Assembly: GCA_017399185.1 (NCBI GenBank)
Contig: JAFQEA010000016.1
Location: 21,264-85,263 of the forward strand
Source: Clostridia bacterium
GTDB taxonomy: Bacteria > Bacillota > Clostridia > Christensenellales > Borkfalkiaceae
Reading direction: 5' to 3'
Length of the DNA stretch: 64,000 bases
Every line of letters starts with the position of its first letter. Position 1 is the first letter of the stretch. Under the pieces are notes generated by a model that searched no databases, was not told where the DNA came from, and saw nothing but the letters and a program-made list of their open reading frames with translations. Made by a program: the position numbers and the translations under genes. Of the stretch, positions 23,545 through 64,000 are shown piece after piece.

Positions 23545-23761
23545 TCCCCCCAATTCATAAAAATCTAAATTTTTATAAAATTTAACGGATTGTAACAACA
23601 CCTATGGTGTTTAAACAAACAACTCATAAGGCGACGGATTTATCCGCCGCCTTATTTATATAATAAGGTTGCAAAAACTTAAATCTTATGATATAATGCA
23701 AAAAAACGTAATACTATGTTCAAGCGTGGATATTTTTATTTTATAAGCGGAGATAGACTAT

Positions 23762-26216: not shown

Positions 26217-27104
26217 TCAGTATTCAATCTTAAAATAATCCAGCCAGAGCTTAAACTGGTCCTGACAGGACAAGCAGGTGTCGGTCAAGTAACCTTTTTG
26301 CCTGTCCCATTCCTTAAGAGCGCGGTAATAAAACATTTTGTGGGCTTCGTCAATGATAAAGGGCACAACGTTATTTGCCAAACATTCCTTAAACATTAAA
26401 AGCCTGCCAACGCGCCCGTTTCCGTCCTGAAAGGGGTGGATAGCTTCAAAACGCGTATGGAAAGCCAAAATTTGCTCAAAGCCCTTTACGTCAAGGCTGT
26501 TATACCACTCAAGCAGGCTGTTGATTTCTTCCTTAACCATTTCAGGGGGGCAGGTTTCAACGCCACCGACTTCGTTTGGTATTTTCTTGTAATCGCCAAC
26601 GTTAAACCAGGACTTTCGGCTATCGCTCGTTCCGCTTTTAAGGATAAGGTGCAGGGCTTTAATCATTGCCGGGGTGACGGGCTTTAAGGCGTTGTCAATA
26701 ATATAGTCAACGCACTTAAAATGGTTTGCGGTTTCAATAACGTCGTCAACGTTTACTGCCGATTCAATGCCAATCGTGTTGGTTTCAAAAATATATCGCG
26801 TTTGGTCGTGCGACAGGGTGCTGCCTTCAATGTGGTTGGAGCTATACGTAAGCTCAATCTGTATTTTATGGTATATCCCACCTTTAAGCTTTAATTCCTT
26901 TTGCTCCTTTAATGCGGTTAACAGCTTGCTTGCGCCTGGGGGGCTGAAGCTTTCACGCGCGGGCTTTAAGGCGTCTTCAGGCAGGTTCCAGGTCTTGCCG
27001 GTTAAAAACGCACCGGGCACGCGCCCTTGCGCACAATAGCTGCGCACCATTCTTTCGCTTACGTTCCATTTTTTTGCAATTTCACTAACCGAAACAAATC
27101 GCAT
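26217..27104 (-). CDS. Fic/DOC family protein with N-terminal HTH
   Basis: Fic motif HPFQDGNGRVGR. N-terminus MRFVSVSEIAKKWNVSERMVRSYC is an HTH. Confidence 0.8.
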   Translation of the reverse strand: MRFVSVSEIAKKWNVSERMVRSYCAQGRVPGAFLTGKTWNLPEDALKPARESFSPPGASKLLTALKEQKELKLKGGIYHKIQIELTYSSNHIEGSTLSHDQTRYIFETNTIGIESAVNVDDVIETANHFKCVDYIIDNALKPVTPAMIKALHLILKSGTSDSRKSWFNVGDYKKIPNEVGGVETCPPEMVKEEINSLLEWYNSLDVKGFEQILAFHTRFEAIHPFQDGNGRVGRLLMFKECLANNVVPFIIDEAHKMFYYRALKEWDRQKGYLTDTCLSCQDQFKLWLDYFKIEY

Positions 27105-30600: not shown

Positions 30601-30929
30601 CCTGCAACAACTGCGCGGTTACGCGTGAGGTCAGCGGTCACGTTTACGATAACGATTGCGATTCGTCCTGTAACGAGTGTGGCGAGCAGCGTACTATCGC
30701 CGGCCACGTTTACGATAACAAGTGCGACAATACCTGCAACGTTTGCGGCACAACCCGTAACGTCGGCGCGCACGTTTATGACGACGGCAAAGACCCAACC
30801 TGCAACGAATGTGGCTTAACGCGTGACGTTGGCGGCGGTGGATGCTTCGGCTACGTTGACAGCGTGTTTGCTGTGTTAGGTGTTGCTGCGCTCGGCTTGG
30901 TTAAAGCAATCACTAAAAGAAAAGAATAA
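27606..30929 (+). CDS. large secreted protein: signal peptide, tandemly duplicated N-terminal domain (possibly SGNH-like), about 12 tandem 26-aa Cys/His repeats (HVYDNACDxxCNVCGxxRxV), and a C-terminal GGGG-hydrophobic-KRKE tail
   Basis: 1107 aa. Internal duplication, for example FMTHYVKAVEGIHAINPAATIVVVG versus LTSYAKAVEAIHALNPSAQIVLFG. The repeats are visible at DNA level as an approximately 78-bp tandem array. Confidence 0.6.
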   Translation: MAMAKKGLLTVLFAALFAVCGVLGVWQAKPQAAYAQDTAPKVVYAITDSIGDNAYNSFLQEYLNSGNFTVNNKVTLNGMRAEELRYLVDRTYNGDNYTAENFPALVTYRENTELDVMTADQIILSVGSANFGSQTVSTLCRVIEDKFGVTLGDTTDYGFDVSTLLTEETQGLYDTIFETLEKALNAGGKLSSNALVELFGAENTKKVVNAYAYGFLGFMTHYVKAVEGIHAINPAATIVVVGLYNTLDGLKFEFEGSTVDVGTIAGLLFDGANMMLASKINNIDDVYFAYPGKAGLMLEDIAAGRLDDNFEYDSHIRNLMFNHSLDDQNEQLVDAFKAAFRAAAVNPSVNMAGVMDLFERADGTTKTLTEVLSENVGNLLDGGMQDLLTLNIRMSLGGGVGANLSDNSATKVAGKIESAIKDCYDGGDYLTEAVQTLNRDFDNYATALLKSGMLGAVKELTDNVYFNRLIDALLEAQDFDATHSALMEGAQSGEYTVTGSSKYVALGDAQHMDKNSATNLFAAEIFGAEAASRYINLSTQGMRVEDLLYLLDGTLVPDDYFNSRFNVVSDYDKYVGALEGADLISLSFGGEGVYRFVLEQIFRAMDGKPALAVNWEQFVEPDVAEKIDGLKTKLKQMMNLPETIDIAEILNGLNDGVIDVELVFDTVLHAYLGHLTSYAKAVEAIHALNPSAQIVLFGYFNPMQGLVMPVDGKNIPMGEFVDIFLKVCSMHALTFTATAGDYVTYIDLVGVVTSAINEEWPEDNETPTPVIADYLMNFITENGSDLLLTADGQAVVKNKLTDSFKVSCAHIFDNACDSECNACGAVREVPDHVYDNACDPSCNVCGAKRSVGEHQYLNCKAQLCSICGGGKRASADCQYSNACDKDCNVCGFVREVPDHVYDHACDKDCNVCGEVREVPDHVYDNACDSECNVKGCGFVREVADHVYDTACDAYCNECNFARTPANHVYDNNCADTTCNVCGGFRQYADHVYDNACDATCNNCAVTREVSGHVYDNDCDSSCNECGEQRTIAGHVYDNKCDNTCNVCGTTRNVGAHVYDDGKDPTCNECGLTRDVGGGGCFGYVDSVFAVLGVAALGLVKAITKRKE

Positions 30930-44539: not shown

Positions 44540-45868
44540 ATGCTTAAAAGAAAAGTATATGATGAATTGTTAAAGTGGAAAAAGGAGCGTAAATCTGGTT
44601 TAAAGAAATGCTTAATGATAAAGGGCGCTAGACAGGTTGGTAAATCTTACATTGTTAAGGCGTTTGGGGAAGCCGAGTATAAAAGCTACATACCCATAGA
44701 CTTTCACAAGCAACCTAAAATGAAAGAAATATTCACAGGTGAATTGACCCCGGATGAAATTTACAAAAGGATGACGGCGTATATCCCCAATATCCAGTTA
44801 ATTGCAGGGGATACGTTAATATTTTTAGATGAAATCCAGTATTGTGCAAACGCAAGAACTGCAATTAAGTTTTTAGCTGAAGATATGAGATACGACGTTA
44901 TTTCTTCAGGCTCTTTACTGGGGCTATCATACAGCGATGACGACGATGGATTAGTGGAAGCCCCGGCTTCGATTCCTGTTGGGTACGAAAGGCAAATTAC
45001 GATGTATTCTTTGGATTTTGAAGAGTTTCTGTGGGCTTACGGATACGGGGCAGAGGCAATAGACTATTTGAAAGAGTATTTTGAATCAGACAAGCAGATA
45101 CCTGAAAGCATTCACGATAAATACGAGTCGCTATTTAGAGAATACATGGTTGTTGGTGGTATGCCGGAAGTTGTTGCGGATTTTGCTAAACATAAAGATT
45201 TTAATAGAGTTGCCAATATACAGGCTGATATTTTGGCAGAATATCAAGATGATATTTCAAAGCATGCAAAGGGAAGGGAAAAGCAATACGTAAGGATGTG
45301 CTATGACGCAGTTCCAAAGCAATTAGCTAAAGAGATTAAAAAATTCCAGTATTCAACGGTGGAAAAAGGTCAAACAAGAAGGAAATTTGGCGGCAGCATT
45401 AAGTGGTTAAAAGATGCAAATTTAGTTAACACCAGCTATAACGTTCACGAACCTTTCATTCCGCTACTTGCAAACGCAAACGAAGACCAATTTAAGCTTT
45501 ACATCAACGATACGGGGCTTTTGACGTGTGTATATGGCTTTGATACAAAGCTTGCCATATTGAACAATACGATTAAAGGCAACGCAAAGGGCGGTATTTA
45601 TGAAAACGTTATAGCCGAATGCTTGGTTAAAAAAGGATACACGCTATATTATTACAAGCCTGATGACACGCACGAATTAGAGTTTGTCGTGGAAAAAAAT
45701 GCAGAAGTGATTCCTGTGGAAGTAAAAGCAGGCAACACCGCGTCGGTTTCGTTAAATTCGTTTATTGATAAGTTTAGTCCGTCCGTTGCATATAAATTAA
45801 TAGGCGGGCGCAACGGTAAGGTAGGCGTAAAGATAACCTTGCCGCATTATATGGTTATGTTTTTGTGA
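44540..45868 (+). CDS. AAA-family ATPase (DUF4143-type)
   Basis: Walker A GARQVGKS and Walker B LIFLDEIQ. The length and C-terminal DUF4143-like region are consistent. Confidence 0.6.
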   Translation: MLKRKVYDELLKWKKERKSGLKKCLMIKGARQVGKSYIVKAFGEAEYKSYIPIDFHKQPKMKEIFTGELTPDEIYKRMTAYIPNIQLIAGDTLIFLDEIQYCANARTAIKFLAEDMRYDVISSGSLLGLSYSDDDDGLVEAPASIPVGYERQITMYSLDFEEFLWAYGYGAEAIDYLKEYFESDKQIPESIHDKYESLFREYMVVGGMPEVVADFAKHKDFNRVANIQADILAEYQDDISKHAKGREKQYVRMCYDAVPKQLAKEIKKFQYSTVEKGQTRRKFGGSIKWLKDANLVNTSYNVHEPFIPLLANANEDQFKLYINDTGLLTCVYGFDTKLAILNNTIKGNAKGGIYENVIAECLVKKGYTLYYYKPDDTHELEFVVEKNAEVIPVEVKAGNTASVSLNSFIDKFSPSVAYKLIGGRNGKVGVKITLPHYMVMFL

Positions 45869-50735: not shown

Positions 50736-50846
50736 GAAAGTGGACGAGCTCCTACATACACGGTAATGCTCAATCCCGAGATCATCAAAAAAGACGGCGC
50801 AGATTATTCAGCATGAAGTTGATCATTGCAACGGCGTACTTATCTA
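50736..50846 (+). pseudogene. def: degraded peptide deformylase remnant (def fragment)
   Basis: One frame reads …VMLNPEIIKKDG… (PDF post-motif-I region). A second frame reads IQHEVDHCNGVLI*, which is PDF motif III QHExDHxxG. Motif II EGCLS and the N-terminus are absent. Confidence 0.45.
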
Positions 50847-50864
50847 AAAAACAGGAGAATAAAA

Positions 50865-53696
50865 ATGGCTCTTATTAAATGCCCTGAATGTCAAAACTCA
50901 ATATCCGACAAGGCGGAGAAGTGTCCACACTGTGGTCTTCCTGCGGAGTATTTTAATGTTGTCGGAGCACCTGTTGAAAAAACATATGGTATTGATTACA
51001 AAAGCATAGCCAATATAATCATTTCATTCGATAAGGACTATGTGGATCTTTTTTCTGACAGTCATTACATAACGCACCGCGAACAGGATTACTTGCATTC
51101 AACATATGGGGAGTATTATACTTCTTTGAAGAACAAACTGATTTTTCAATATGTTTGCAATAATGCATCGGCTCTTCGTGTTGATATTGATGGGTTGAAA
51201 CGTTTTCTGCGAAAGATGCATACGATTGACGAGAGCATCGTTGCACACAACGAGGAATACATTGAAAGAACGCTCGTTCAGGAGAAGGAGTATTTCGATA
51301 ATATCCTTTCTGAAATTGATCCAAAAATTCGCCTTGATGACGAACAGAGAAGAGCTGTTATAACCGATGACGATTACTGTCTTTTGGTTGCAGGTGCCGG
51401 TGCAGGTAAGACCACCACAATGGCGGCGAAGGTAAAGTATCTTGTTGAGAAAAAGCATGTAAATCCTGAGGAAATTATCGTTATTTCCTACACCAATAAG
51501 GCAATTGATGAACTGAAGGAAAGAATCAACAAGAGCTTAAAAATTCCAGCAAAGATATGTACATTCCATGCGTTCGCGTTTGAGATTGTGAAGCGTTTCT
51601 CGGTTGAACCGCCTGAAATTAACTTTTCTTCTTATCAGATCGTATTCGATATGCTTGAAAAGTCAATCTTCAACAATAAGCAGTTGATGAGGAATCTTGT
51701 GCTGTTCTTAGGATATTATTTCGATTTGACCGAGGATGTGTTCAAGTTCGATAATCTAAATCAGTTCCATCTCTATAAAGCAGCGCAGGACTACGAAACC
51801 TTGAAAAGCGGTCTTGGTGAATATATCAGGAAGGTTGAACAACAGAGAAGCAAGAGAGTAAAAACGATTACCGGCGAATATTTGCGTTCAGTTCAGGAGG
51901 TACAGATTGCAAATTTCCTGTATCTCAACGGTCTTGATTATGAGTATGAGCGCGTTTATCCTCACGGATCGCCATCAAAAAACAAAAAGTATACACCTGA
52001 TTTCTACATCACACAAGGTGAACATACCGCTTGGCTTGAACATTACGCTTTAACTGAAAGTGGATACAGTAGTGTATTTGCACCCGAGCAAATAGCAAAA
52101 TACAAAAAATCCATTCGTGATAAGCGTGCATTACATAGCGGTTATAAAACCACTTTGATTGAAACGTGGTCGCTGTATAATGACCGTCGTTCTTTGATGG
52201 ATCATTTGAAGGAAAGCCTTGAACGAGAGGGATTTCAGTTGAAACCGCGTAACCTTGACGAGGTTTATAAAAAGATAGTTGAAACTGGAAAAGATAAATA
52301 TATCATAAAGTTGATACTGTTCATGATGAACTTTATTGAGCAGTATAAAACAACCGGATATGACGAAGCCGGATTCGATATATTGCGCAAGAAAACGGAC
52401 AATCCAAGAACGTTACTTTTCCTTGATATCGCCGAAGAAGTATATCATCATTATCAGTCGGTATTGAAGCAGAACAATCAGATTGACTTTGCTGATATGA
52501 TCAATGATGCGCATTTCTATCTTCAGGAGATCGAACGGCAGCGCATTGAAATGCCGTACAAGTATATTATCATTGATGAGTTCCAAGATATTGCTCGTCA
52601 ACGATTCAATTTGACAAAGCGTTTGTCTGAAATTACAAAGGCTAAGGTTGTTGCCGTTGGTGATGACTGGCAGTCGATTTACGCTTTTTCTGGTTCTGAC
52701 ATTACGCTCTTCACGAGATTCCTTGAGCTTATGGGAGCCGGAACGGAATTGAAAATCACGCATACATATCGTAACTCTCAGGAGTTGATTGATATTGCGG
52801 GCGGATTTGTTCAGAAAAACTCTGCACAAATAAGAAAACAGCTGATCTCCCCCAAGCACCTTAAAAATCCTGTTGTCATCGAGGCATTTGATGATAGCGT
52901 TAAGCCTATGAAAGCATTGGCGGAGAAAATAGAGGAAATAATCGGCAAGATCATTGCTGAATACGGCGAAAAGGGTTCAATTTTGTTAATTGGACGGTAC
53001 AACTATGATATGTACAAGTTGTATATTACGGGTGCGTTTGCCGAATTGCCTAACAACCGCGTACAGTCTAAAAAATATCCAAACGCGAATATCACTTTCA
53101 TGACTGCGCATAGCTCCAAAGGTCTTGGATATGATAATGTTATTTTAATCAACATGTTTGAGGGTAAGTTTGGATTCCCGTGTCAGATTGAAGATGATCC
53201 AATCATCAAGCTGGTTATGCACGAGGATAAGACAATGCCGTTTGCGGAGGAACGTAGATTGTTCTATGTAGCAATGACAAGAACCAAGAATCGTGTTTAT
53301 ATTGCAACTCCAAAGCATAAGCCCTCAAGATTCCTTGTTGAACTGATTAAGGATTATAATCTGCCTCACGACGAAGGAATCAATATGCACGTTGTTGATC
53401 TTTTCAATCTGCGTTGCCCGATTTGCGGATTTCCGTTAAAATACGAGTTTAACAAGAATTATGGATTGCAACTATGGATATGCACAAACGATTCTGAGGT
53501 CTGCGATTTTATGACAAATGATAAGGTGCATAAACATGACATCTTCAAATGTCCACAATGTGCAGACGGATATATGATCGTTAAGATGAATCCTAAAAAC
53601 GGAAACGTATTCTATGGATGCACAAATTATTTTAGCGATACAAACAAGTGTACAAATATGATATCGCTTGGAAACGACAATCAGCAGAAAAAGTAA
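50865..53696 (+). CDS. UvrD/Rep-family (helicase IV-like) helicase with an N-terminal zinc ribbon and C-terminal topoisomerase-type C4 zinc fingers
   Basis: N-terminal CPECQN…CPHCG. Helicase motif I LLVAGAGAGKTT. VAVGDDWQSIYAFSG. MTAHSSKGLGYD. Motif VI VAMTRTKNRVYI. C-terminal CPICGFP…CTND…CDF and FKCPQCADGYMIV…YGCTNY. Confidence 0.7.
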   Translation: MALIKCPECQNSISDKAEKCPHCGLPAEYFNVVGAPVEKTYGIDYKSIANIIISFDKDYVDLFSDSHYITHREQDYLHSTYGEYYTSLKNKLIFQYVCNNASALRVDIDGLKRFLRKMHTIDESIVAHNEEYIERTLVQEKEYFDNILSEIDPKIRLDDEQRRAVITDDDYCLLVAGAGAGKTTTMAAKVKYLVEKKHVNPEEIIVISYTNKAIDELKERINKSLKIPAKICTFHAFAFEIVKRFSVEPPEINFSSYQIVFDMLEKSIFNNKQLMRNLVLFLGYYFDLTEDVFKFDNLNQFHLYKAAQDYETLKSGLGEYIRKVEQQRSKRVKTITGEYLRSVQEVQIANFLYLNGLDYEYERVYPHGSPSKNKKYTPDFYITQGEHTAWLEHYALTESGYSSVFAPEQIAKYKKSIRDKRALHSGYKTTLIETWSLYNDRRSLMDHLKESLEREGFQLKPRNLDEVYKKIVETGKDKYIIKLILFMMNFIEQYKTTGYDEAGFDILRKKTDNPRTLLFLDIAEEVYHHYQSVLKQNNQIDFADMINDAHFYLQEIERQRIEMPYKYIIIDEFQDIARQRFNLTKRLSEITKAKVVAVGDDWQSIYAFSGSDITLFTRFLELMGAGTELKITHTYRNSQELIDIAGGFVQKNSAQIRKQLISPKHLKNPVVIEAFDDSVKPMKALAEKIEEIIGKIIAEYGEKGSILLIGRYNYDMYKLYITGAFAELPNNRVQSKKYPNANITFMTAHSSKGLGYDNVILINMFEGKFGFPCQIEDDPIIKLVMHEDKTMPFAEERRLFYVAMTRTKNRVYIATPKHKPSRFLVELIKDYNLPHDEGINMHVVDLFNLRCPICGFPLKYEFNKNYGLQLWICTNDSEVCDFMTNDKVHKHDIFKCPQCADGYMIVKMNPKNGNVFYGCTNYFSDTNKCTNMISLGNDNQQKK

Positions 53697-53989: not shown

Positions 53990-54134
53990 GTTGGTGTTGA
54001 ATCGTCCTTTCTTATAGAGAACAAAAAGCGAATCATGATTTATAATTCTGACAAAAAGATGTCGAAAAATGGTTGGCACAAAGGCAATTATGTGATATAC
54101 TTAAGTATATACGTAAGTAGCAAAGGAGTTTAAG

Positions 54135-55196
54135 ATGATAAGTTATAAATTTCCAGCTGTAAAAGGCACGCAAGCGGGCAAAGAGTATTATATTTGTATG
54201 GTTCCTATGGGGTTGTTACAAAAATTGTTTATTACAGATACCTCTGATGTTTCTCCCGAGTATAGGGCACAGCGCAAATTAAATGAATTGCGTATTCCCG
54301 AGATTAAAGAATATATTTTAGAGAATCGTAATTCCTATGTCTTTTCTGCGTTGGCAGCTTCTATTGATGGAACGGTGAACTTCATTCCTTATCAGGGGAA
54401 TTCAAGTGTCGGAGAGCTGGAAATTGATATGACCGCCACTTTTTTAATAAATGATGGGCAGCACAGAAAGGCTGCTATTGTTGCCGCAATTGAAGAAGAT
54501 GAGTCGCTCAAGGATGAAACAATCTCAATTGTTATATATAAAGATCAAGGCTTGCAGTGTAGTCAGCAGATGTTTACCGATTTAAACAAACATGCAGTTA
54601 CCACATCAAAATCTCTAAATACGCTGTATGAATCTAAAGATCCAATTGCGTTGATAACCAAAAATATCATTAACGACATTACTTTTTTAAGAAAATATAC
54701 TGATAAAGAAAAGGACAACCTTAGTAAGTTTTCTTCAAATATTTTTACGTTAAATACATTTTATTCCGCCAATAAGAGAATTACAAAAATCATTGGAACA
54801 TCCGAAACGGCAGCTAAAACAATATTTGATTTTTGGAATAATGTTGTGAAAAATATTCGTGAGTGGAATGAAATGGATGCCGGAGAGCTCAGCAAAAAGA
54901 GTTTAAGAGAAGATTATATCATTACTCAGGGGTTAATTATATTGGCATTTGGTCGTTTGTGTGAATTCTATTGCAACAATCCGAGCATTGATATGGTAAA
55001 GACATTAAAAGGCTTGAGCAAAATTGATTGGCTCAGAAATAACGGGTCAAGTTGGATGAACCGCGCTATTAAGATTAACGGTAAAATTAATAGAAATGAA
55101 CAGGGCATATTCCTTACTTATGTTGAAATAAAAAGATTGTTAAATCTTCCGATTACAGATGACGAATTGAAAAAAGAAAGCTTATTAATGGGGTAA
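54135..55196 (+). CDS. dndB: DNA phosphorothioation-associated DndB (DGQHR-domain protein)
   Basis: Contains the eponymous FLINDGQHRKAAI motif. 353 aa. First gene of a dndBCDE-ordered cluster. AAAGGAG RBS. Confidence 0.75.
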   Translation: MISYKFPAVKGTQAGKEYYICMVPMGLLQKLFITDTSDVSPEYRAQRKLNELRIPEIKEYILENRNSYVFSALAASIDGTVNFIPYQGNSSVGELEIDMTATFLINDGQHRKAAIVAAIEEDESLKDETISIVIYKDQGLQCSQQMFTDLNKHAVTTSKSLNTLYESKDPIALITKNIINDITFLRKYTDKEKDNLSKFSSNIFTLNTFYSANKRITKIIGTSETAAKTIFDFWNNVVKNIREWNEMDAGELSKKSLREDYIITQGLIILAFGRLCEFYCNNPSIDMVKTLKGLSKIDWLRNNGSSWMNRAIKINGKINRNEQGIFLTYVEIKRLLNLPITDDELKKESLLMG

Positions 55197-55206
55197 AAAA
55201 ACAATT

Positions 55207-56601
55207 ATGCCATACACAGGAAATTTTCAAGTATTTGAAGAAATTATAAAAGAAATTATGATAGTTTATAAGCACGATAACCGCCCGTGGCTTATAGGAT
55301 ACAGTGGCGGCAAAGACTCTACGTTGCTTGTAAGCCTTGTATACGAAGCGATGAAACGACTTAAGCGTACCGGTTCGAAGATGCATAAAAAGATATATGT
55401 CATCACTTCTGACACAATGGTGGAAAATCCTATTGTCAAAAATTACATGCATACTTCCTCGCAGAGCATAAATGACGCTTCAAAACGTGACGGATTAGAA
55501 ATAGAGGCTAATATGATATACCCGGAACCGGAGCAAACTTTCTGGAGTCGTGTGATAGGCTTGGGATATCCTACGCCTGAACCTCCCGGATTCAGATGGT
55601 GTACAGAACGTCTTAAAATCAATCCGATGAATAAATTCGTAAATGATCGAATTCAAGAAAACGGCGAAATAATTATTCTACTTGGCGTTAGAAAAGGCGA
55701 AAGCTTAACAAGAATGAAAACAATCACGGCAAGGGAGATTGAAGGTAAGCTTTTGAATATGCATAACGATATTCCTAATGCTTATGTTTATAACGCTATT
55801 ACTGAAGTGCCCAACGAATTGGTGTGGGAGTTTTTGCTTAAGGATGATTGCCAAAGCCCTTGGGGGGCAGATATGAAATATTTGTTCAATCTATATCAGG
55901 GCGAAAACATAGGAGAAGAACAAAGCGTTTTAGGCGAAGTTGATAAAGAGAAAATTCCGGTAACAGGCAACTCAAGGTTTGGATGCTGGTGTTGCACAAT
56001 GGTTAAAGAGGATAAGTCCTTACAAAACTTCATTGATCGTGGAGCAACTGAATTGATTCCGCTCAGAAACTTCCGTAACGAACTTTTAAAAATGCGCGAT
56101 AATCCTCAAATGCGTGATAACAAAAGACGAAACGGAACTGTGTATAGAAAAGCGGACGGAAGCTTCGGACTTGGCCCATTTACATTGGAGTCAAGAAGAA
56201 TTATTCTCGAGAAACTCCTTGAACTTGAGAATGAAACAGGATTGGAATTGATAACGATCGGTGAGTTGAAAGCCATTGATAAAATGTGGGACGAAGAAGG
56301 CGACTTGTCGTGCAGAAAGCTAGTAGATACCTACTTTAAAGTGAAAAAGGTCAAACTTCCTTGGGATGACTATAAGTCTCCAAGATTTGATGATGAAGCG
56401 ATCACGTCTATCGAGGAGGTGGCAGATAAATACGATATCCCTGTTGAGTTAATTACAAAGCTAATCGTTTCCGTGGACGATAATAAACATATCACAAGAA
56501 ACAATAAACTTCAAAAATCATTTGATCAAATTATAAATCAGAATTGGTTGCACTTTAACATGATAGAAAGGGGGCTTGACGGTGAAGATCCAAAAAATTA
56601 A
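55207..56601 (+). CDS. dndC: DNA phosphorothioation system sulfurtransferase DndC (PAPS-reductase/PP-loop)
   Basis: PP-loop YSGGKDST. Cys cluster FGCWCCT. 464 aa. Confidence 0.8.
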   Translation: MPYTGNFQVFEEIIKEIMIVYKHDNRPWLIGYSGGKDSTLLVSLVYEAMKRLKRTGSKMHKKIYVITSDTMVENPIVKNYMHTSSQSINDASKRDGLEIEANMIYPEPEQTFWSRVIGLGYPTPEPPGFRWCTERLKINPMNKFVNDRIQENGEIIILLGVRKGESLTRMKTITAREIEGKLLNMHNDIPNAYVYNAITEVPNELVWEFLLKDDCQSPWGADMKYLFNLYQGENIGEEQSVLGEVDKEKIPVTGNSRFGCWCCTMVKEDKSLQNFIDRGATELIPLRNFRNELLKMRDNPQMRDNKRRNGTVYRKADGSFGLGPFTLESRRIILEKLLELENETGLELITIGELKAIDKMWDEEGDLSCRKLVDTYFKVKKVKLPWDDYKSPRFDDEAITSIEEVADKYDIPVELITKLIVSVDDNKHITRNNKLQKSFDQIINQNWLHFNMIERGLDGEDPKN

Positions 56602-58687
56602 ATTGAGCAACATTGGCCCCTATGTTAATACTAATGAATTTGATTTCAATGTATCTGATATATCGAAGCGAATGGTGTTGATTGGTGGAAAAAATGGAGC
56701 AGGAAAAACAACGCTTTTTAAAGCAATTAAGCTTTGTCTATATGGTTATGTGGCTTACGGATTTGAATCGATAAATGCAAAATACTATTCCGAAGTCGAA
56801 AAGATTATAAATTCCAACGAAAAATTAAAGCGTGCAGGCGAAGCGGAAGTTTCCATAGATTTGCTGCTTGATGACGGAAAATATAATGACACGTACACAT
56901 TTGTTAGAAAATGGAGAATCACAGGAAAGCGTATTTCTGAAACATTTGATGTATATAAGAATGGGGAACTTTTAGACTTGACAGCTAAAAGTGATTTCGA
57001 AAGCTACATATTGCACTTGCTTCCCCCCAACCTGTTCAGATTTTATTTCTTCGATGGCGAGAAGTTAAGTGAATTCGTGTTTAATGGTAATAAAAATTCG
57101 GATTTTAAAGATGCTTTTTTGAAGCTCTGCAATTTGGATACTATGGAAATAATTCGTGAGAATTTCAGAAGAATTTCGCGAGGAAAAGCGAAAGATAGTA
57201 TGAATTTTTCTCAAGAATATGATAGATGTGTAAGCGAAGATACACTTGCAGCTGTTAGAGTAGAGAAGGCTGAAGATGAATATGTCGAAACGGAGAATTT
57301 GATTCTGTCCATAGACGAAGAATTAGCTGCTCTTGAAAAAACATATAGCAAGGGTGGTGGAATTTCTAAAAAAGAATGGAAATCCATGCAGGATCAGATT
57401 GCAAAAGAGGAAGCTCGTAGAGAAGAAAGAAGAAAATGGCTCAAAGATATTGCCAATAATGTGTTGCCGTTTATCATTCTTAATCAACAACTTGAATGTC
57501 TGAGAGAACAAATCCACTTAGAGCATAAGGCACAAATTGATTCTAATGTAAAATCAACAATTGATACGGTCGAAATTCAATCTATTATTCTAGAAGTGTT
57601 AACATCTTGCGGTGTAGAACATTCAATAGACATAACAAAGAAGATAATTTTTGAAATTGGCAATTATGCGAGTACAACTGATAGAATTGTTCCAATATTA
57701 AATCTGTCTGATCTTGATCGATATGAATTAAATGCTAAAATAAATTCACTACTGTCTTTTGACATTACAAGAATTAAAAGTGCTACTGACGATATCGAGG
57801 CATCGCTTAATTGTGTGAAGCGAATAAGAAAAAAGATGGAGAAAAGCAGCATCGACAACTATGATGAATACTTGCAAAAGAAAAGCGAGTTGAACGAGCG
57901 TAAAGCGGATCTTTCCAAACACTTGCTTGAGTTGGATAAAGAATTGCAGAAGTTGCGGGCTGATAAAGCGGTTACTGCCGCAAAATTGGCAAAAGCCAAG
58001 GCTGACTATGAGGCAATTTTGAAAAAGCAATCGATCAACGATATTTCTGCGCGTGCATTATTGGCTTTTGATGAACTTCAGGAGTTGTTATATGCTAAAA
58101 GTATTAAGGCTGTCGAAACTGGCTTCGCTGAGCGTTTTAAAGCATTGATCAACAAGTCTGACTTGATTGATGGCATTCATATTGATGAAAATCTAAACGT
58201 ATTACCCTATAAAAACAAGCACTTTATGGCCAAAGATATCAAAAGATCTTTGATGATAAACGGCCCGGAATATATTATTGCTCAAATAGGTTTGCATGCA
58301 TATGAATTGTTGCAAAGCAAATTTCAAGAAGGTGATGAAGAATTTGATTTGCCGGTTGAAGTAAAACAACAACTTTCCGCAGGCGAAAAACAGATTTTTG
58401 TAATGGCATTGTATCAGGCACTCTCTGGCTTAAACAAAATCAATGTACCATACATTATCGATACTCCGTTTGCTCGAATTGACCGTGAACACCGCGGTAA
58501 TATTTTGGAGCATTTCTTTAAACAGCTTAAAGGACAAATCATTATCCTTTCCACGGATGAAGAAATCGTTTCTAATCACATGGATGTAGTATCCGACGTG
58601 ATATCCAACACTTTTGTCCTAAATCATACAAGTGCTGGAAACACAGAAATTTTAGCTAACAAATACTTTGGAGGTAGAAACGTATGA
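56576..58687 (+). CDS. dndD: DNA sulfur modification protein DndD (SMC/ABC-like ATPase)
   Basis: Walker A GGKNGAGKTTL, long coiled coil, signature-like LSAGEKQ, and D-loop YIIDTPFARID. The start is TTG at 56576, or GTG at 56582 giving MKIQKIKL…. Confidence 0.75.
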   Translation: MTVKIQKIKLSNIGPYVNTNEFDFNVSDISKRMVLIGGKNGAGKTTLFKAIKLCLYGYVAYGFESINAKYYSEVEKIINSNEKLKRAGEAEVSIDLLLDDGKYNDTYTFVRKWRITGKRISETFDVYKNGELLDLTAKSDFESYILHLLPPNLFRFYFFDGEKLSEFVFNGNKNSDFKDAFLKLCNLDTMEIIRENFRRISRGKAKDSMNFSQEYDRCVSEDTLAAVRVEKAEDEYVETENLILSIDEELAALEKTYSKGGGISKKEWKSMQDQIAKEEARREERRKWLKDIANNVLPFIILNQQLECLREQIHLEHKAQIDSNVKSTIDTVEIQSIILEVLTSCGVEHSIDITKKIIFEIGNYASTTDRIVPILNLSDLDRYELNAKINSLLSFDITRIKSATDDIEASLNCVKRIRKKMEKSSIDNYDEYLQKKSELNERKADLSKHLLELDKELQKLRADKAVTAAKLAKAKADYEAILKKQSINDISARALLAFDELQELLYAKSIKAVETGFAERFKALINKSDLIDGIHIDENLNVLPYKNKHFMAKDIKRSLMINGPEYIIAQIGLHAYELLQSKFQEGDEEFDLPVEVKQQLSAGEKQIFVMALYQALSGLNKINVPYIIDTPFARIDREHRGNILEHFFKQLKGQIIILSTDEEIVSNHMDVVSDVISNTFVLNHTSAGNTEILANKYFGGRNV

Positions 58688-59058
58688 CCAACAAACTGCA
58701 CACATCAAAACAAACACAAGAAATATTTGCATCGCTTGGTCAGTCGTTGGGATTACAGCCATTTATACTATCGAAGCTTGCCATAGCATTATCTATCAGA
58801 AAAGGAAAACTTGACAATGAAGACTACTCTTCTGATAATGATGGATTAGAGCTTAACCGCCAAACAATTTTTGGCGACCATGATATGATATTTAAGGCTT
58901 TAATTATTAACTGCCAAAGCAAAGCGGCTACTGAAGACGAGTATTTCCCGGATATGGTAAAAGCTCATCTTGATCGAGGAGCAAAGCTGTTGGAAGATGA
59001 AAAGAGATATAGCAAAGATTTTTACAATAATATGTGTCATTTGGATACAAATATCTAA
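58684..59058 (+). CDS. dndE: probable DndE
   Basis: 124 aa. ATGA overlap with dndD. Position and size fit DndE. No motif recognised by eye. Confidence 0.5.
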   Translation: MTNKLHTSKQTQEIFASLGQSLGLQPFILSKLAIALSIRKGKLDNEDYSSDNDGLELNRQTIFGDHDMIFKALIINCQSKAATEDEYFPDMVKAHLDRGAKLLEDEKRYSKDFYNNMCHLDTNI

Positions 59059-59078: not shown

Positions 59079-60983
59079 ATGGAATTTCCTAAAATTAAAC
59101 CTTGTCTCGACACGTCTGAAAATGATTTGGTTGAGGAATTATATACTCCCTGTTTGCAGTGGGCGACTCAGTTTGATCGTGGAGTAGGTTATTTCACCAC
59201 AGGATGGCTTGAGTGTAACGTATCCGGTATGAGTGATTTCGCAGCACGAGGTGGAATAATGCGACTCATAACAAGTCCTATTATTTCTAACGAAGATTCT
59301 GATGCGATTATATTGGCAAACGAGAGAGATAATTCTGCTTATCAGCTGTTAGAAGAAGCATTATCTAAAAACGTAGAAGCACTAGCAGTCGAGATGAAAA
59401 AGGATGTCCTAAACGCGTTTTCTTGGATGCTTTATGATGGTATTGTCGAATTGAAATTTGCTGTTCCGAGGATGAAGCTCAAAGGAGATTTTCACGATAA
59501 GTTTGGAGTGTTTTACAACGGTGAAGATGCTCTATCCTTTTCGGGATCAATAAATGATAGTATCCACGGATATCAAAACTACGAAAGTATAAAAGTTTTC
59601 AAAACGTGGACAGGGACAAAGGAATATGTTGATGCTGACAAGGAGCGTTTTGAGCGCTTGTGGATAGGAAAGGATAAGAACTTAAAAATATATTCGATTC
59701 CTCAGGCGATAAAAGAAAAAATCTTCAAATTGCGCACTTCGGATAGACCGTATGCTTATACAGCTAAACCTGTCAACAAGTGGATACACCAAGACAAGGC
59801 CGTGGAATGCTTTTTGGAAAAAGAACATGGCATTTTAGCGATGGCAACAGGAACCGGAAAAACTGTAACCGCTATTAAAATTATCAACAAGCTCTTTGAA
59901 GAAGGCAAAATTAAGAGAGTAGTGATAACTATGTACGGTAATGATTTGCTTGATCAGTGGGCTAAGCAAATGCGAGAAAAGTACAAGAATAAGCAAATAT
60001 ACTATCAATATGACAAACAGAAGGAATTAAGCAAATTTATTATTCATCCGGACAACTCTATTCTTTTAATATCTCGTGATGCAGGCAATTTATCAAAGCT
60101 TTTAAACTTGTTAGATAAAGCCCCTGGTAACTATCGTGAAGATACTCTGTTCATTTTTGATGAGGTTCACGGCGCAGGATCTAATTCTTTTGTTGAGAAT
60201 CTTACAGGAAGGATATCTCCTTACAGATATCGATTAGGATTAAGTGCTACGCCAGAGCGCGAATATGACGATGATGGCAACGATTTCCTTCGAAATGAAA
60301 TCGGTGAAATAATATTTGAATTTTCACTCAAGGATGCAATTCAAAAGGGAATTTTATGCGAGTTTGATTATATTCCTTTATCGTATGTGCTAACCGAAGA
60401 AGAAAAACAAAGGAAGAAAAAAATTATTGCTGCCTTTAACGCAAAAAAGGAAAGCGGCGAGCCATACGACGAGACCGAAATGTTTACACAACTCGCTCGT
60501 GTTAATAAGATAGCAATTGATAAGATTGATACGTTTGAAACGTTTATTGTTGACAAGTCCGATCTCTTGGAAAAATCGATCATATTTGTTCAAGAAAGAC
60601 CATATGGAGAAAAGCTGCAAGATGTTCTTATAAAGTATACCGATAAGTATCACACATACTATGCCGATGATGAAAAATCAAATTTGAAGGATTTTTCAGA
60701 AGGAAAAATAGAGTGCTTATTGACTTGTAAAAAGATTTCTGAAGGCATTGATATTAGTAGCGTGACGAATATATTTCTTTTTGCCTCTGATCGTTCAAAG
60801 TTGGTTACTACACAAAGAATAGGACGAGCTTTGCGCCTTGATAAAAACAATCCTCATAAAAGGGCAACAGTAATCGACTTTATTTTGGATGATTTTGGGG
60901 AGAACGATAATAATGCCGACCAAGAACGTGCACAGTGGCTCGGCGAACTTTCTAAAACAAGGAGAATCGAAGATGAGAAATAA
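59079..60983 (+). CDS. PLD-like (HKD-type) nuclease domain fused to an SF2 DExH helicase
   Basis: N-terminal HDKFGVFYNGEDALSFSGSIN approximates H-x-K…D…GSxN. Helicase motifs: I MATGTGKTV, II IFDEVH, III LGLSATPER, VI TTQRIGRALRLD. Confidence 0.6.
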   Translation: MEFPKIKPCLDTSENDLVEELYTPCLQWATQFDRGVGYFTTGWLECNVSGMSDFAARGGIMRLITSPIISNEDSDAIILANERDNSAYQLLEEALSKNVEALAVEMKKDVLNAFSWMLYDGIVELKFAVPRMKLKGDFHDKFGVFYNGEDALSFSGSINDSIHGYQNYESIKVFKTWTGTKEYVDADKERFERLWIGKDKNLKIYSIPQAIKEKIFKLRTSDRPYAYTAKPVNKWIHQDKAVECFLEKEHGILAMATGTGKTVTAIKIINKLFEEGKIKRVVITMYGNDLLDQWAKQMREKYKNKQIYYQYDKQKELSKFIIHPDNSILLISRDAGNLSKLLNLLDKAPGNYREDTLFIFDEVHGAGSNSFVENLTGRISPYRYRLGLSATPEREYDDDGNDFLRNEIGEIIFEFSLKDAIQKGILCEFDYIPLSYVLTEEEKQRKKKIIAAFNAKKESGEPYDETEMFTQLARVNKIAIDKIDTFETFIVDKSDLLEKSIIFVQERPYGEKLQDVLIKYTDKYHTYYADDEKSNLKDFSEGKIECLLTCKKISEGIDISSVTNIFLFASDRSKLVTTQRIGRALRLDKNNPHKRATVIDFILDDFGENDNNADQERAQWLGELSKTRRIEDEK

Positions 60984-61200
60984 AATTATAGAAGCGACAA
61001 TTGAAGAAGTAATAGATAAGTCTTCGTATCCTGATGATTTCAAAAAAGCATTCAAACAGTTTGTAAAAAATAAGTTTGATGACAACGCGAAAGAAAGCGA
61101 TCTCAAAAGAGTTTTATCTCTTCTGAATGAAGAGGGAGAAGATTTGACAGAGTATAACTTTTCTCTTTTGGACTACGATGAAACGGGGGATAGCAAATAA
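60973..61200 (+). CDS. small acidic hypothetical protein
   Basis: 75 aa from ATG 60973, with a GGAG RBS. Overlaps the upstream stop by 11 nt. Its stop TAA overlaps the next ATG (TAATG). Confidence 0.35.
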   Translation: MRNKIIEATIEEVIDKSSYPDDFKKAFKQFVKNKFDDNAKESDLKRVLSLLNEEGEDLTEYNFSLLDYDETGDSK

Positions 61201-63119
61201 TGAAAATGACGATACTCGAATTCGAATATAAGCATATTCGAAAAATATCTTCCCTCAAAATGGCTTTTGTAAATACATCAGGAACGCTCATTCAAAACAA
61301 TTTTGTGATGATGGCAAACGGTACGGGTAAAACTACCACAATGTCGCTTATAAAAGGTCTTTTGGATGGCAGCGCAGCAAAGTGGTCGGAAGAAACAGTT
61401 CGCTCATTTGCGCCTACTATTAGTCAATCAAATAGAGGCGAATTCAGTATGACTGTAAAGTTTGATGAAAAGCAGTATAAGTATTTTTTGGTGTTAGACT
61501 ATGTTAATGGCGTCGCAAAGATCGAAACACTTGCTCCGCCTAAAGGTCGTGATGCCGGATTGCGTTTGCCGGAATCCATCAGGGGTATTTTTACTGCAGA
61601 GTTTGTAAGCCGTTTTGTCTTTGATGGAGAGCAAGCCAAGAAATCTATGGATAGAACATCAAACGAAGCAGATGAAACTATACGATATCTTTATCGTTTG
61701 GATGAATTGGATAAAATCTTGGCAATGAACGAAAGCATTTTGAAGGAAATTCAAAGCGCGGAAGGTGGTAACAAAGGAACACAAAGCTCTTTATGTAATC
61801 TTCGTTCTAGACAAGAGAAAGTGGCAGGTTTTTATAAACATCTCAAGGCAAGACAAAAGCAGCTAAAAGAAGATATTAGTGTATTTTTTGCAGAAAAGCT
61901 GGAGAAGGAAAATCAACGAAAAGAACTTGATAAAAACTACGAAGCACTTAACACTGAAAAACAAGGGATTGTTTCTGAGTTGGATAAAAACCGCGGCAAT
62001 ATAAATTCGCAAATTGTTGCTATTGTTGAGCTTGTAAAACTGCCATACTTGGTTAATGAGTTGCTTTGTCAGAGAATGTATGATTTGGGAGCAGGAATGA
62101 CGAAGTTGAAACTTCCCAAGAACAGCTCCAAGGACTTCTTTACCGAATTAGCTAATTCTCCAAAATGTGTTTGTGATAGGTGTATTGGCGAGGCGGAACG
62201 TTTAGCGATTTTGAAGAACGCAGAAAAATATCTTGGTAGTGAGCACCAGGCTGTTCTCAACACTATCAAAAGCGTGTTGATGTCAAGTTCTTACGATGAT
62301 AGACTGGTGCAAGCCTTGGAAGAGTTGGGAGCGTTACAAGAGCAAAAGACTCGCTTAGATGCAAGATTTAAAGATGTGGAGGACAGGCTTATTAAAGCTG
62401 GCGGCGCACAAGTTGAGCAGTTGCAAAAGGAAATTGAGGAGCTTGTTGCTAAGATTTCTGCTGCGCAAACGCAACTTGGTATAATTGAATCCAAAGACAA
62501 TACTGACGAAACTCTTACAGAGGAAAACAATCTTTATAAGGCTGAACGAGCTTATAATGAGTATGAGATTAAAATTGCTGCCACCACTAAAACAAACGCG
62601 GCTTTGCACAAAAAACAGATTGTTCAATCTCTGATTGATGAAATCAAGGTTCAGGCTACAAAGGCTCTGAAAAAAGAAATCATCAAAAAGACCAATGAAA
62701 AAATCAAGCGTGTAATTACCGACGATTTTATCGAAATCGATAATATCGATGGTTACATAAGGCTGAAAAACAGGGATGGTGCAAGTGAAGGACAAACGTT
62801 GAGCATCGGTTATTGTTTCCTCGGTACGTTGTTCGAAGATTCCGAATTGGAATTTCCGTTTGTTATTGACTCGCCTACAGGGAAAATGGATTTCGACAAG
62901 CGCCAAGCGGTTGCGGATATCATCCCCGTGGTATTTAAGCAAATGATAGCTTTCGTTCAATCTGCAGAGGTTGAACGCTTTGCTGATCAGTTTTATGATA
63001 ACAAAAATTCTCAATTCTTAACTGTTGTGGCTGATAAGGAGTCGGGAGAAGTCATTGTTCATGAGGGAATTGAATTCTTTAATTCCTATCAACATGAGCA
63101 CAAAGGAGATGAGGAATAA
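61200..63119 (+). CDS. SMC/DndD-like coiled-coil ABC-type ATPase (second copy in the cluster)
   Basis: Walker A MANGTGKTTTM, approximately 350-aa coiled coil, C-terminal LSIGYCFLG and FVIDSPTGKMD (Walker B/D-loop). 639 aa. Confidence 0.55.
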   Translation: MKMTILEFEYKHIRKISSLKMAFVNTSGTLIQNNFVMMANGTGKTTTMSLIKGLLDGSAAKWSEETVRSFAPTISQSNRGEFSMTVKFDEKQYKYFLVLDYVNGVAKIETLAPPKGRDAGLRLPESIRGIFTAEFVSRFVFDGEQAKKSMDRTSNEADETIRYLYRLDELDKILAMNESILKEIQSAEGGNKGTQSSLCNLRSRQEKVAGFYKHLKARQKQLKEDISVFFAEKLEKENQRKELDKNYEALNTEKQGIVSELDKNRGNINSQIVAIVELVKLPYLVNELLCQRMYDLGAGMTKLKLPKNSSKDFFTELANSPKCVCDRCIGEAERLAILKNAEKYLGSEHQAVLNTIKSVLMSSSYDDRLVQALEELGALQEQKTRLDARFKDVEDRLIKAGGAQVEQLQKEIEELVAKISAAQTQLGIIESKDNTDETLTEENNLYKAERAYNEYEIKIAATTKTNAALHKKQIVQSLIDEIKVQATKALKKEIIKKTNEKIKRVITDDFIEIDNIDGYIRLKNRDGASEGQTLSIGYCFLGTLFEDSELEFPFVIDSPTGKMDFDKRQAVADIIPVVFKQMIAFVQSAEVERFADQFYDNKNSQFLTVVADKESGEVIVHEGIEFFNSYQHEHKGDEE

Positions 63120-63607
63120 TGCATTTTAAACTATCTAAAAGCGCGAAAAACTTTTTTAGCAATATTATTAATCTCGAAGGTTCTCATGCCGCTGAAGATA
63201 AGAATAAGTTCATTCAGTTCGATGTTTACTATTGTTGTGCCTTGATTGGTATGGCAGCGGTGCAGCTGGACGAAGAAACTTCCGATCTTTCCGATATGGT
63301 AGAGAAATATCCCAAGCCATACGCACAATGCAAATCCTATATTGCCGGACTTTTAGTTGCTACCGAGGCTAAGAGATTGGGGATTGATTCACAAAGCACG
63401 AAACTTGAGGATATTATGATCCAATATCTCAGTAACGATGATACCATGCTTTCGGAAGAAGGAATAAAAACGCTAAATGCATATGCCTTAAAAGGGTACC
63501 ATCTAATACATGAATTTCCTCTTGAAGAGAAGCCTACTTCAAGAGAAGAATTCTTAGAAGCATTTTACATGGCGATGCAGTTTATAGCGCAGAATCGTGA
63601 GAACTAA
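63119..63607 (+). CDS. hypothetical protein, last gene of the four-gene coupled module
   Basis: 162 aa. TAATG overlap with the upstream ATPase gene. No motif recognised. Confidence 0.4.
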   Translation: MHFKLSKSAKNFFSNIINLEGSHAAEDKNKFIQFDVYYCCALIGMAAVQLDEETSDLSDMVEKYPKPYAQCKSYIAGLLVATEAKRLGIDSQSTKLEDIMIQYLSNDDTMLSEEGIKTLNAYALKGYHLIHEFPLEEKPTSREEFLEAFYMAMQFIAQNREN

Positions 63608-63655
63608 AATCATCCAAAAAACACCGCTACATTTGTGGCGGTGTTTTTTGGATGA
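63608..63655. terminator. bidirectional terminator
   Basis: aaaaaacaccgc-tacatttgt-ggcggtgtttttt. Confidence 0.6.
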
Positions 63656-63658
63656 TTT

Positions 63659-64000
63659 TTATTGTGAAAATGAAGTTTTCAGACCGTCGCTCAATTGTGT
63701 ATGCAAAACAGTTAGATTCGATTCGCTATAATATTTTTTAACGAATTTTTTGTATACATCTGTTATCTCGGGTACTGATTTGCTCTGTCCCTTTAGGGAT
63801 ACAAGGTTTTGGTATTCGCTTAAATTTTCAATATTATCAACAAATATTTTTATATGCTTGGGCATGCTTGTCCCAGGCTGATTGTAGTGATTTTTGATTA
63901 AGTTGATTTTTGTGACAATATCTTTTACGCCTAATGAACCATTTAAGGCTGTTGGGAGAATTATATAATTTGCTGTGTGCCCCTTATATACAGTTGTTAA
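63659..64000 (-). CDS. hypothetical protein, 3' part; the start lies beyond the window
   Basis: The reading frame is open from the right edge to the stop at 63659. Manual translation: …NHYNQPGTSMPKHIKIFVDNIENL…. Confidence 0.3.
   Translation of the reverse strand, partial: LTTVYKGHTANYIILPTALNGSLGVKDIVTKINLIKNHYNQPGTSMPKHIKIFVDNIENLSEYQNLVSLKGQSKSVPEITDVYKKFVKKYYSESNLTVLHTQLSDGLKTSFSQ

Follow-up and report, generated by a model that had tools for sequence, protein, structure and literature searches.

Four adjacent genes (g1 to g4) in a DNA stretch from an uncultured gut Clostridia bacterium most probably (roughly 0.85) are pbeABCD, the genes for 'phosphorothioate-blocked DNA exclusion' or, by its other name, the CxC-ABC-ATPase-centred system, and form one eight-gene chromosomal operon with dndBCDE. 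The stretch, referred to as the window, is 64,000 nt long, and all positions below are numbered within it. It is chromosomal and contains rpoB, rpoC, fusA, ispDF, a serine dehydratase gene and further housekeeping genes. Among bacteria, the locus is nothing out of the ordinary: DndBCDE-PbeABCD loci of this type have already been described, are found in hundreds of taxa and are covered by PADLOC. A first-pass annotation, made from the sequence of the window, had proposed instead that the four genes were a phosphorothioate (PT)-gated restriction module of an undescribed architecture. The four genes are as follows.

59,079–60,983, plus strand: g1, pbeA, 634 amino acids (aa)
60,973–61,200, plus strand: g2, pbeB, 75 aa, isoelectric point (pI) 4.5; ATG at 60,973 with AAGGAGAA ahead of it
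61,200–63,119, plus strand: g3, pbeC, 639 aa
63,119–63,607, plus strand: g4, pbeD, 162 aa, pI 4.9

Xiong et al. (2019) described pbeABCD as genes for a protein with PLD, Res III and helicase C domains, a PbeB of 66 aa, an AAA_23-type SMC-like ATPase PbeC and a PbeD of 152 aa (PMC6459918). In Haloterrigena jeotgali A29, pbeABCD is one transcription unit that adjoins dndCDEA, and pbeAC adjoining dndCD was found in 235 additional bacterial genomes, with 42% of 553 PbeAC pairs located within 10 kb of dndCD (PMC6459918). Krishnan, Aravind and colleagues equated Pbe with the CxC-ABC-ATPase-centred system, in which PbeA is an HKD-SF2 protein, PbeB a small disordered protein, PbeC a zinc-hook-bearing CxC ABC (ATP-binding cassette) ATPase and PbeD its cognate DndE-like partner. 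They counted 936 bacterial and 41 archaeal taxa in which a DndD-centred and a CxC-centred system occur in tandem (PMC10853773). The gene order in the window and the product sizes of 634, 75, 639, and 162 aa match those of PbeABCD. Thus, the first-pass statement that the module was none of DndFGH, Ssp or Pbe by size or order was wrong as to Pbe.

PbeA is a putative N-terminal nuclease domain of the HKD/PLD type fused to a DExH helicase of superfamily 2 (SF2), with nuclease activity predicted. It matched the PADLOC PbeA model PDLC02703 with an E of 2.5e-185, and the match ran from residue 12 to 605 on model positions 12–617 of 626. The same model was the top PADLOC PbeA model for a Halorubrum dndCDE-pbe locus used as a control (E 2.7e-176). 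Pfam domains of PbeA included ResIII (E 6.5e-23), Helicase_C (E 2.7e-11) and DEAD. The HKD-like block, HDKFGVFYNGEDALSFSGSIN, spans residues 139–159 (H139, K141, and G156-S-x-N159), and the SF2 motifs are GTGKT (258–262), DEVH (361–364), SAT (389–391), and QRIGRALR (579–586). In the alignment of 35 PbeA homologs, H139-x-K141 and G-S-x-N-[DE]-[ST] were invariant, as were helicase motifs I (GTGKT), II (DEVH), III (SAT), and VI (QRxGRxxR). The HKD-like block and the complete helicase motifs that had been noted for g1 are present as well as conserved.

Among solved chains, PDB 7CLG comes closest to PbeA over the helicase together with the nuclease-proximal region (residues 115–602, E 4.1e-10). This 953-aa chain is one we take to be SauUSI, a type IV restriction enzyme that combines a PLD nuclease with an SF2 helicase and presumably carries a C-terminal target-recognition domain. 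PADLOC models of type IV methyl-directed restriction endonucleases also matched PbeA weakly. In contrast to 7CLG, PbeA ends after the helicase and lacks a C-terminal recognition domain, which fits with target discrimination being handed over, presumably, to PbeC, PbeD, and PbeB.

Gene 3 is PbeC, a full-length DndD paralog that is predicted to be a coiled-coil ABC ATPase of the CxC type. Comparison of g3 with DndD by hhalign gave a probability of 99.8 and an E of 1.1e-27 over 579 aligned columns, which bears out the earlier proposal that both proteins share one fold. The motifs of g3 include a Walker A at G41-T-G-K44-T (NGTGKTTTM), CVC at residues 323–325 of 639, an SEGQ signature, and FVIDSP as the Walker B/D-loop. 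The Walker A, the SEGQ signature, and the Walker B of the form hhhhDSP are conserved family-wide. The central C-[VI]-C was found in 38 of 38 members of the PbeC family vs. 0 of 37 DndD, and no C-x-C was found when the window DndD was searched through its whole length. The identities between g3 and the syntenic PbeC of Proteobacteria and haloarchaea were 26–33% over the full length. The PADLOC PbeC match of g3 had an E of 1.7e-19. The PADLOC 'PbeC' models PDLC02709–02756, which gave 1.1e-22 for the haloarchaeal control PbeC, matched the window DndD with an E of 3.2e-97. Given that the same models favor the window DndD, these matches were dropped as discriminating evidence for g3. DndD-like sequences appear to be the main source of these models, which could mislabel DndD as PbeC.

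Gene 2 is assigned to pbeB, its product being a predicted small acidic protein of the Sp-CxC family. Its own match to Pfam Sp-CxC (PF20304) was sub-threshold (17 bits, E 0.0059; cutoff 27.5 bits). A small acidic open reading frame (ORF) of 47–87 aa fills the pbeB slot at every related locus, and the syntenic haloarchaeal copies passed the gathering threshold of PF20304 with an E of 5.3e-19 and 2.4e-9. Moreover, the clostridial PbeB set matched the haloarchaeal/proteobacterial set by hhalign with a probability of 97.4 and an E of 1e-11, as compared to an E of 0.084 for the reversed-sequence control. An annotated NCBI protein of a 'Clostridia bacterium' metagenome-assembled genome has the very sequence (100% identity) of the 75-aa g2 product, which is encoded on dozens of contigs.

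Searches with g4 found no match in Pfam, NCBIfam, PADLOC or the sequences of the PDB, and the family that it founds comprises about 300 clusters when grouped at 50% identity. The AlphaFold2 model of PbeD, built from an alignment of 85 sequences, had a pLDDT (predicted local distance difference test) of 94.9 and a pTM (predicted template modeling score) of 0.90. Its layout is beta-alpha-alpha, beta-alpha-alpha plus two additional C-terminal helices. DndE has been described as two ribbon-helix-helix (RHH) repeats (PMC10853773). The modeled layout of PbeD is consistent with that description, which fits a DndE-type protein with a DndE fold directly after the ATPase. Profile-profile comparison of g4 with DndE was not significant. 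In the Halorubrum control locus, the PADLOC matches of PbeC were weak, and PbeB and PbeD had none. Because PbeB and PbeD of the control also lack a PADLOC match, the empty PADLOC result for g2 and g4 is uninformative.

Scanning species-representative genomes with PbeC patterns yielded 38 loci: 13 clostridial ones, about 20 that were chiefly alpha- or gammaproteobacterial, and 5 haloarchaeal or nanohaloarchaeal ones. The clostridial loci were from 12 close relatives in the gut lineage and [Clostridium] asparagiforme. All 36 loci that were intact and long enough, that is, leaving out L015 on a 3.9-kb contig and the fragmented L036, had the order pbeA, small ORF, pbeC, and pbeD together with dndC/D within 10 kb, the outcome of the conservation check that had been suggested for the four-gene block beside dnd genes. 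The four-ORF pattern is thus not a product of chance, given that 38 loci of three phyla/domains have homologs of all four, arranged alike. The identities of the haloarchaeal proteins to those of the window were 37–41% for PbeA, 29–31% for PbeC, and 25–31% for PbeD. Close homologs of the operon were found on hundreds of metagenome contigs, and the lineage is abundant in the gut.

The junction of the two modules varied among these loci. The start of pbeA was 10–16 nt past dndE in 11 of 12 clostridial loci, and the gap in the window is 20 nt. In L013 the module order is reversed, with the pbe genes ahead of dndBCDE. In Proteobacteria, the dnd and pbe modules were usually on opposite strands, divergent or convergent, and 1–3 kb apart. 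Hence, the dnd and pbe modules are separable but persistently linked.

The four genes upstream of g1 were identified unambiguously as dndB, dndC, dndD, and dndE by their profile matches. These genes and the candidate signals that flank the eight genes are as follows.

54,073–54,101, plus strand: candidate sigma-70-type promoter, TTGGCA-17-TATACT with TG upstream, 34 nt 5′ of the dndB start (consensus scan)
54,135–55,196, plus strand: dndB, 353 aa, DGQHR/ParB-superfamily regulator of PT modification genes (PADLOC DndB E 2.5e-121; Pfam DndB E 1.3e-107; TIGR03233 392.7 bits vs. a cutoff of 328)
55,207–56,601, plus strand: dndC, 464 aa, sulfurtransferase like 3′-phosphoadenosine 5′-phosphosulfate (PAPS) reductase (PADLOC DndC E 4.1e-127; TIGR03183 368 bits, cutoff 290)
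56,576–58,687, plus strand: dndD, 703 aa, coiled-coil ABC ATPase (PADLOC DndD E 1.5e-100; TIGR03185 316 bits, cutoff 246)
58,684–59,058, plus strand: dndE, 124 aa (Pfam DndE E 1.1e-23, above the gathering score; PADLOC DndE E 2.1e-15)
63,609–63,656, no strand assigned: hairpin with a 20-bp stem and A-runs/T-runs on its flanks (terminator scan and sequence reading)

The dndE stop codon TAA is at 59,056–59,058 and the ATG of g1 at 59,079, and the 20-nt gap between them holds the ribosome-binding site GAAGGGGGA. The overlap of g1 and g2 is 11 nt (60,973–60,983), and TAATG is found at both the g2/g3 (61,198–61,202) and the g3/g4 (63,117–63,121) junctions, where the overlap is 1 nt each. This reading of the sequence agreed exactly with the four co-oriented ORFs, the overlaps and the gap after dndE given in the first-pass annotation. 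The order A-B-C-D on one strand with junction overlaps of 11, 1, and 1 nt fits a single predicted transcription unit. The terminator scan found none between dndB and pbeD, and the hairpin directly 3′ of g4 was the sole convincing terminator in 53.4–64 kb. It is likely a bidirectional intrinsic terminator that ends both the dnd-pbe operon and a convergent DUF262 gene. Because the lone convincing terminator comes after g4, the simplest reading is a single transcript from dndB to g4, and the eight genes from dndB through pbeD probably form one operon, as judged from the sequence. The co-transcription with the dnd genes that had been proposed fits with this strong terminator after g4 and with the lack of internal ones.

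The promoter at 54,073–54,101 is suggested by its position alone. Promoter-like sites across the region were not enriched in the consensus scan, with 39 observed vs. 34.9 ± 5.6 in shuffled sequences. The top promoter-like match of the region (TTGACA-17-GATAAT, 11/12) is at 58,811–58,839 on the plus strand, within dndE and 240 nt 5′ of pbeA. This site could permit transcription of the pbe genes that is independent to some degree; such sites are not above the shuffles.

In the haloarchaeal system, dndCDEA-pbeABCD lowered virus plating about 10^4-fold, a PT-modified virus escaped, and viral DNA replication stopped while DNA degradation was not detectable (PMC6459918). When the H. jeotgali genes were expressed in Natrinema, all four pbe genes were needed, with the need for PbeA being less absolute (PMC6459918). 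By orthology, DndBCDE and a housekeeping cysteine desulfurase encoded elsewhere would place PT marks on the host DNA. The invariant CxC and the paralogy with DndD suggest that PbeC may form a dimer via a zinc hook at its central CxC. Together with the DndE-fold PbeD, PbeC might load on, scan or clamp DNA in the manner proposed for DndD-DndE, as its paralogy and its Walker and signature motifs would suggest. PbeA, whose invariant catalytic residues are intact, would be an ATP-driven SF2 translocase and the effector acting on DNA without the PT mark. With only one HKD half-site per protein, an active site would require that two PbeA molecules join. PbeB may regulate or bridge the complex. That the HKD residues are so strictly kept from one domain of life to another speaks for a role of phosphodiester hydrolysis, in line with PMC10853773; the 'no cleavage' result from haloarchaea is hard to reconcile with this.

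Several observations weigh against the assignment of the locus to PbeABCD or against its proposed working. The window PbeB by itself is under the Pfam threshold (17 vs. 27.5 bits), and the PADLOC 'PbeC' models fail to discriminate, as the window DndD scores far above g3. The AlphaFold2 model of PbeC (pLDDT 58.7 and pTM 0.33), whose alignment was shallow with 10 sequences, is too poor to show whether the CxC is at the coiled-coil tip. In addition, 58% of pbeAC pairs are without dndCD nearby (PMC6459918). The mechanism is disputed, with no DNA cleavage seen in haloarchaea vs. a conserved HKD site that argues for cleavage. Finally, PT modification and defence in this organism are predicted from its genes.

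In another reading, the four genes are PbeABCD by descent but would act independently of PT, as an abortive-infection or suicide system complete in itself, and the dnd genes would be just another member of a defence island. PbeC-PbeD would then sense a viral cue, the virus would remove the negative regulator PbeB, and the HKD domain of PbeA would cut the cell's own DNA. This was proposed in PMC10853773, and CxC systems without DndD systems occur in many taxa. The 42% of PbeAC pairs near dndCD, the strict conservation of the HKD catalytic residues and the separability of the modules, which adjoin each other in Clostridia, swap order in L013, and point toward or away from each other across gaps of 1–3 kb in Proteobacteria, are consistent with it as well. 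However, the only system studied experimentally needed the dnd genes, and its PT-modified virus escaped (PMC6459918). Moreover, dndC/D was within 10 kb in 36 of 36 loci with enough flanking DNA, and the 10–20-nt dndE-pbeA junction without a terminator between them points to one transcript in this lineage. The single-operon layout favors coupling of Pbe to PT, and independence from PT is the less probable reading by a wide measure, if a serious one. That PbeC-PbeD serve as another unit that directs DNA modification, with PT or another mark placed at further motifs and PbeA merely a remodeling motor, is quite improbable. It would accord with PbeC being a full-length DndD paralog, with the modeled DndE fold of PbeD and with the cytosine methylases of some CxC systems (PMC10853773). 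The cassette, however, has no second DndC or methylase, an invariant HKD nuclease motif is hard to square with pure modification, and deletion of pbe abolished the haloarchaeal defence (PMC6459918).

The claim of an undescribed architecture, Lamassu-like and outside Pbe, Dnd and Ssp, hardly deserves credence any longer. Genes 2 and 4 indeed lack a PADLOC match and an above-threshold Pfam or NCBIfam match, but PbeB and PbeD of the haloarchaeal control equally lack a PADLOC match, and each part of the module maps onto one of PbeA-D. Because the proteins are PbeA-D orthologs, the outcome of profile searches that the first-pass annotation had itself named beforehand as decisive against novelty, this claim is refuted. 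The comparison with Lamassu drew on the arrangement of the genes; Lamassu systems pair the SMC-like ATPase LmuB with the effector LmuA, and LmuC may be added. Haloarchaeal PbeC has a secondary PADLOC match to LmuB (E 2.2e-16), which ranked under its PbeC matches, but g3 itself had no LmuB match at E ≤ 0.01 and g1 no LmuA match in PADLOC. The analogy with Lamassu goes no further than the resemblance that coiled-coil ABC ATPases share in general. What stands of the earlier proposal is the class, a candidate PT-linked defence module; the architecture was already published in 2019–2020.

Beyond the terminator, a convergent gene enters the window.

63,659–64,000, minus strand: convergent DUF262 (GmrSD_N) gene, last 114 codons, running off the window (open frame, no stop)

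On same-species contigs (L039–L042; L039:10,687–12,633, minus strand) the full-length product is 648 aa with an identical C-terminus. The window DUF262 protein matched Pfam GmrSD_N with an E of 7.3e-25, contains a DGQQR motif and had weak PADLOC matches to HEC-06, Orf5, and SspE (SspE E 2.8e-11, in the N-terminal domain). In L001 and L007, a DUF262 gene of the window type is directly upstream of dndB. The convergent DUF262 gene is possibly an additional PT-linked effector and a tentative candidate for membership in the module.

Similar genes were found next to pbeD elsewhere. In 18 of the 38 related loci, a gene for a 600–625-aa DUF262+DUF1524 protein follows pbeD on the same strand; such DndI-type genes, at about 12.3–14.3 kb in most loci, were named in L005, L006, L008, L012, L018–L023, L025, L027, L028, and L031–L034. 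The gap between pbeD and the DndI-type gene ranged from −27 to +44 nt (excluding L005), except for 820 nt in L012. Two of the encoded proteins matched Salmonella DndI (PDB 9JFL) over the full length with an E of 1.5e-65 and 9.8e-73. DndI is a PT-sensing nickase with DUF262 and DUF1524 domains, for which PDB 9JFL is the structure (PMC11662687). The window DUF262 protein has in common with DndI only the N-terminal DUF262 domain, and its gene is on the strand opposite to pbeD. No DndI-type or DUF262 gene was found in the four haloarchaeal loci, and a limited literature search found no statement of a pbeD-dndI linkage. That bacterial Pbe is often a five-part unit with a DUF262-type nickase is a tentative idea, and a rather unlikely one. 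In its favor, the DndI-type gene is translationally coupled to pbeD in the 18 loci, and the window lineage, L001, and L007 have a divergent DUF262 protein at another place in the cluster instead. If it were true, with PbeABCD sensing and arresting unmarked DNA and the DUF262 enzyme cutting it, it could explain why replication stops without visible degradation in haloarchaea. The repeated occurrence of DndI behind pbeD gives a modest clue to the way in which PT-based effectors are combined.

Among the other genes of the window, a 956-aa UvrD/helicase IV-like protein with N- and C-terminal zinc ribbons is encoded at 50,826–53,696 (plus strand), about 440 nt upstream of dndB, and had GajB-type matches in PADLOC (E 6.5e-50). 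This gene is kept on same-species contigs. Because it is absent from all 38 cross-species loci, it was rejected as a component of the module. An ATPase with AAA_14 and DUF4143 is encoded at 44,540–45,868 (plus strand) and matched the PADLOC candidate defence family PDC-S01 (E 2e-145). ORFs of 620 and 754 aa are found in a low-GC patch (GC 0.30–0.37) at 21,682–26,026 (plus strand), directly downstream of a 406-aa ORF that follows fusA and is probably tuf. A 1107-aa ORF comes after them at 27,606–30,929 (plus strand), and a Fic-domain gene is between the two regions at 26,217–27,104 (minus strand). The 620-, 754-, and 1107-aa ORFs had no Pfam or PADLOC family. A scan for tRNA and integration signals found no tRNA gene in the window.

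All Pbe experiments so far have been haloarchaeal, and the literature search found no newer papers on the Pbe mechanism. The compact, tightly coupled eight-gene operon from gut Clostridia would be a convenient bacterial model for Pbe. The assignment also corrects an over-call of novelty.

Similar to DndFGH, the module is beside dndBCDE, has PT as the presumed self mark and would pair ATP-driven translocation with a nuclease. There is, however, no homology between them, and their sizes differ. None of the four proteins matched DndF, DndG or DndH in PADLOC. DndH, according to the background given with the first-pass annotation, is a helicase-containing protein of about 1700 aa; no ORF of that length was found in the window, and the largest of the four proteins is 639 aa. 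Neither dndFGH nor dndA/iscS was found among the window ORFs scanned. SspE, a DUF262 NTPase with a DUF1524 HNH nickase, and the SspFGH trio are paired with sspABCD; g1–g4 had no Ssp match in PADLOC, and the modification genes are dndBCDE rather than ssp. Compared with DndCDEA-PbeABCD of H. jeotgali A29, the host is a gut Clostridia bacterium rather than an archaeon, and the modification genes are dndBCDE with DndB and no adjacent dndA instead of dndCDEA. In addition, pbeA starts 20 nt past dndE here, and the function of the module is predicted here from its genes. The two have in common the A-B-C-D order, the domains of PbeA, the similar sizes of PbeB (75 aa here, about 66 aa there) and PbeD (162 and about 152 aa), the coiled-coil ATPase PbeC, the site beside dndCDE and the single unit. 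The CxC ABC-ATPase-centred systems differ from the module in nothing of substance; the cytosine methylase or MTaX1 gene that some members carry is lacking here, and all four of their defining parts are present, in tandem with a DndD-DndE system. These parts are an HKD endoDNase joined to SF2, a small protein that evolves rapidly, an ABC ATPase whose coiled-coil insert has a CxC motif, and a DndE-like protein cognate to it.

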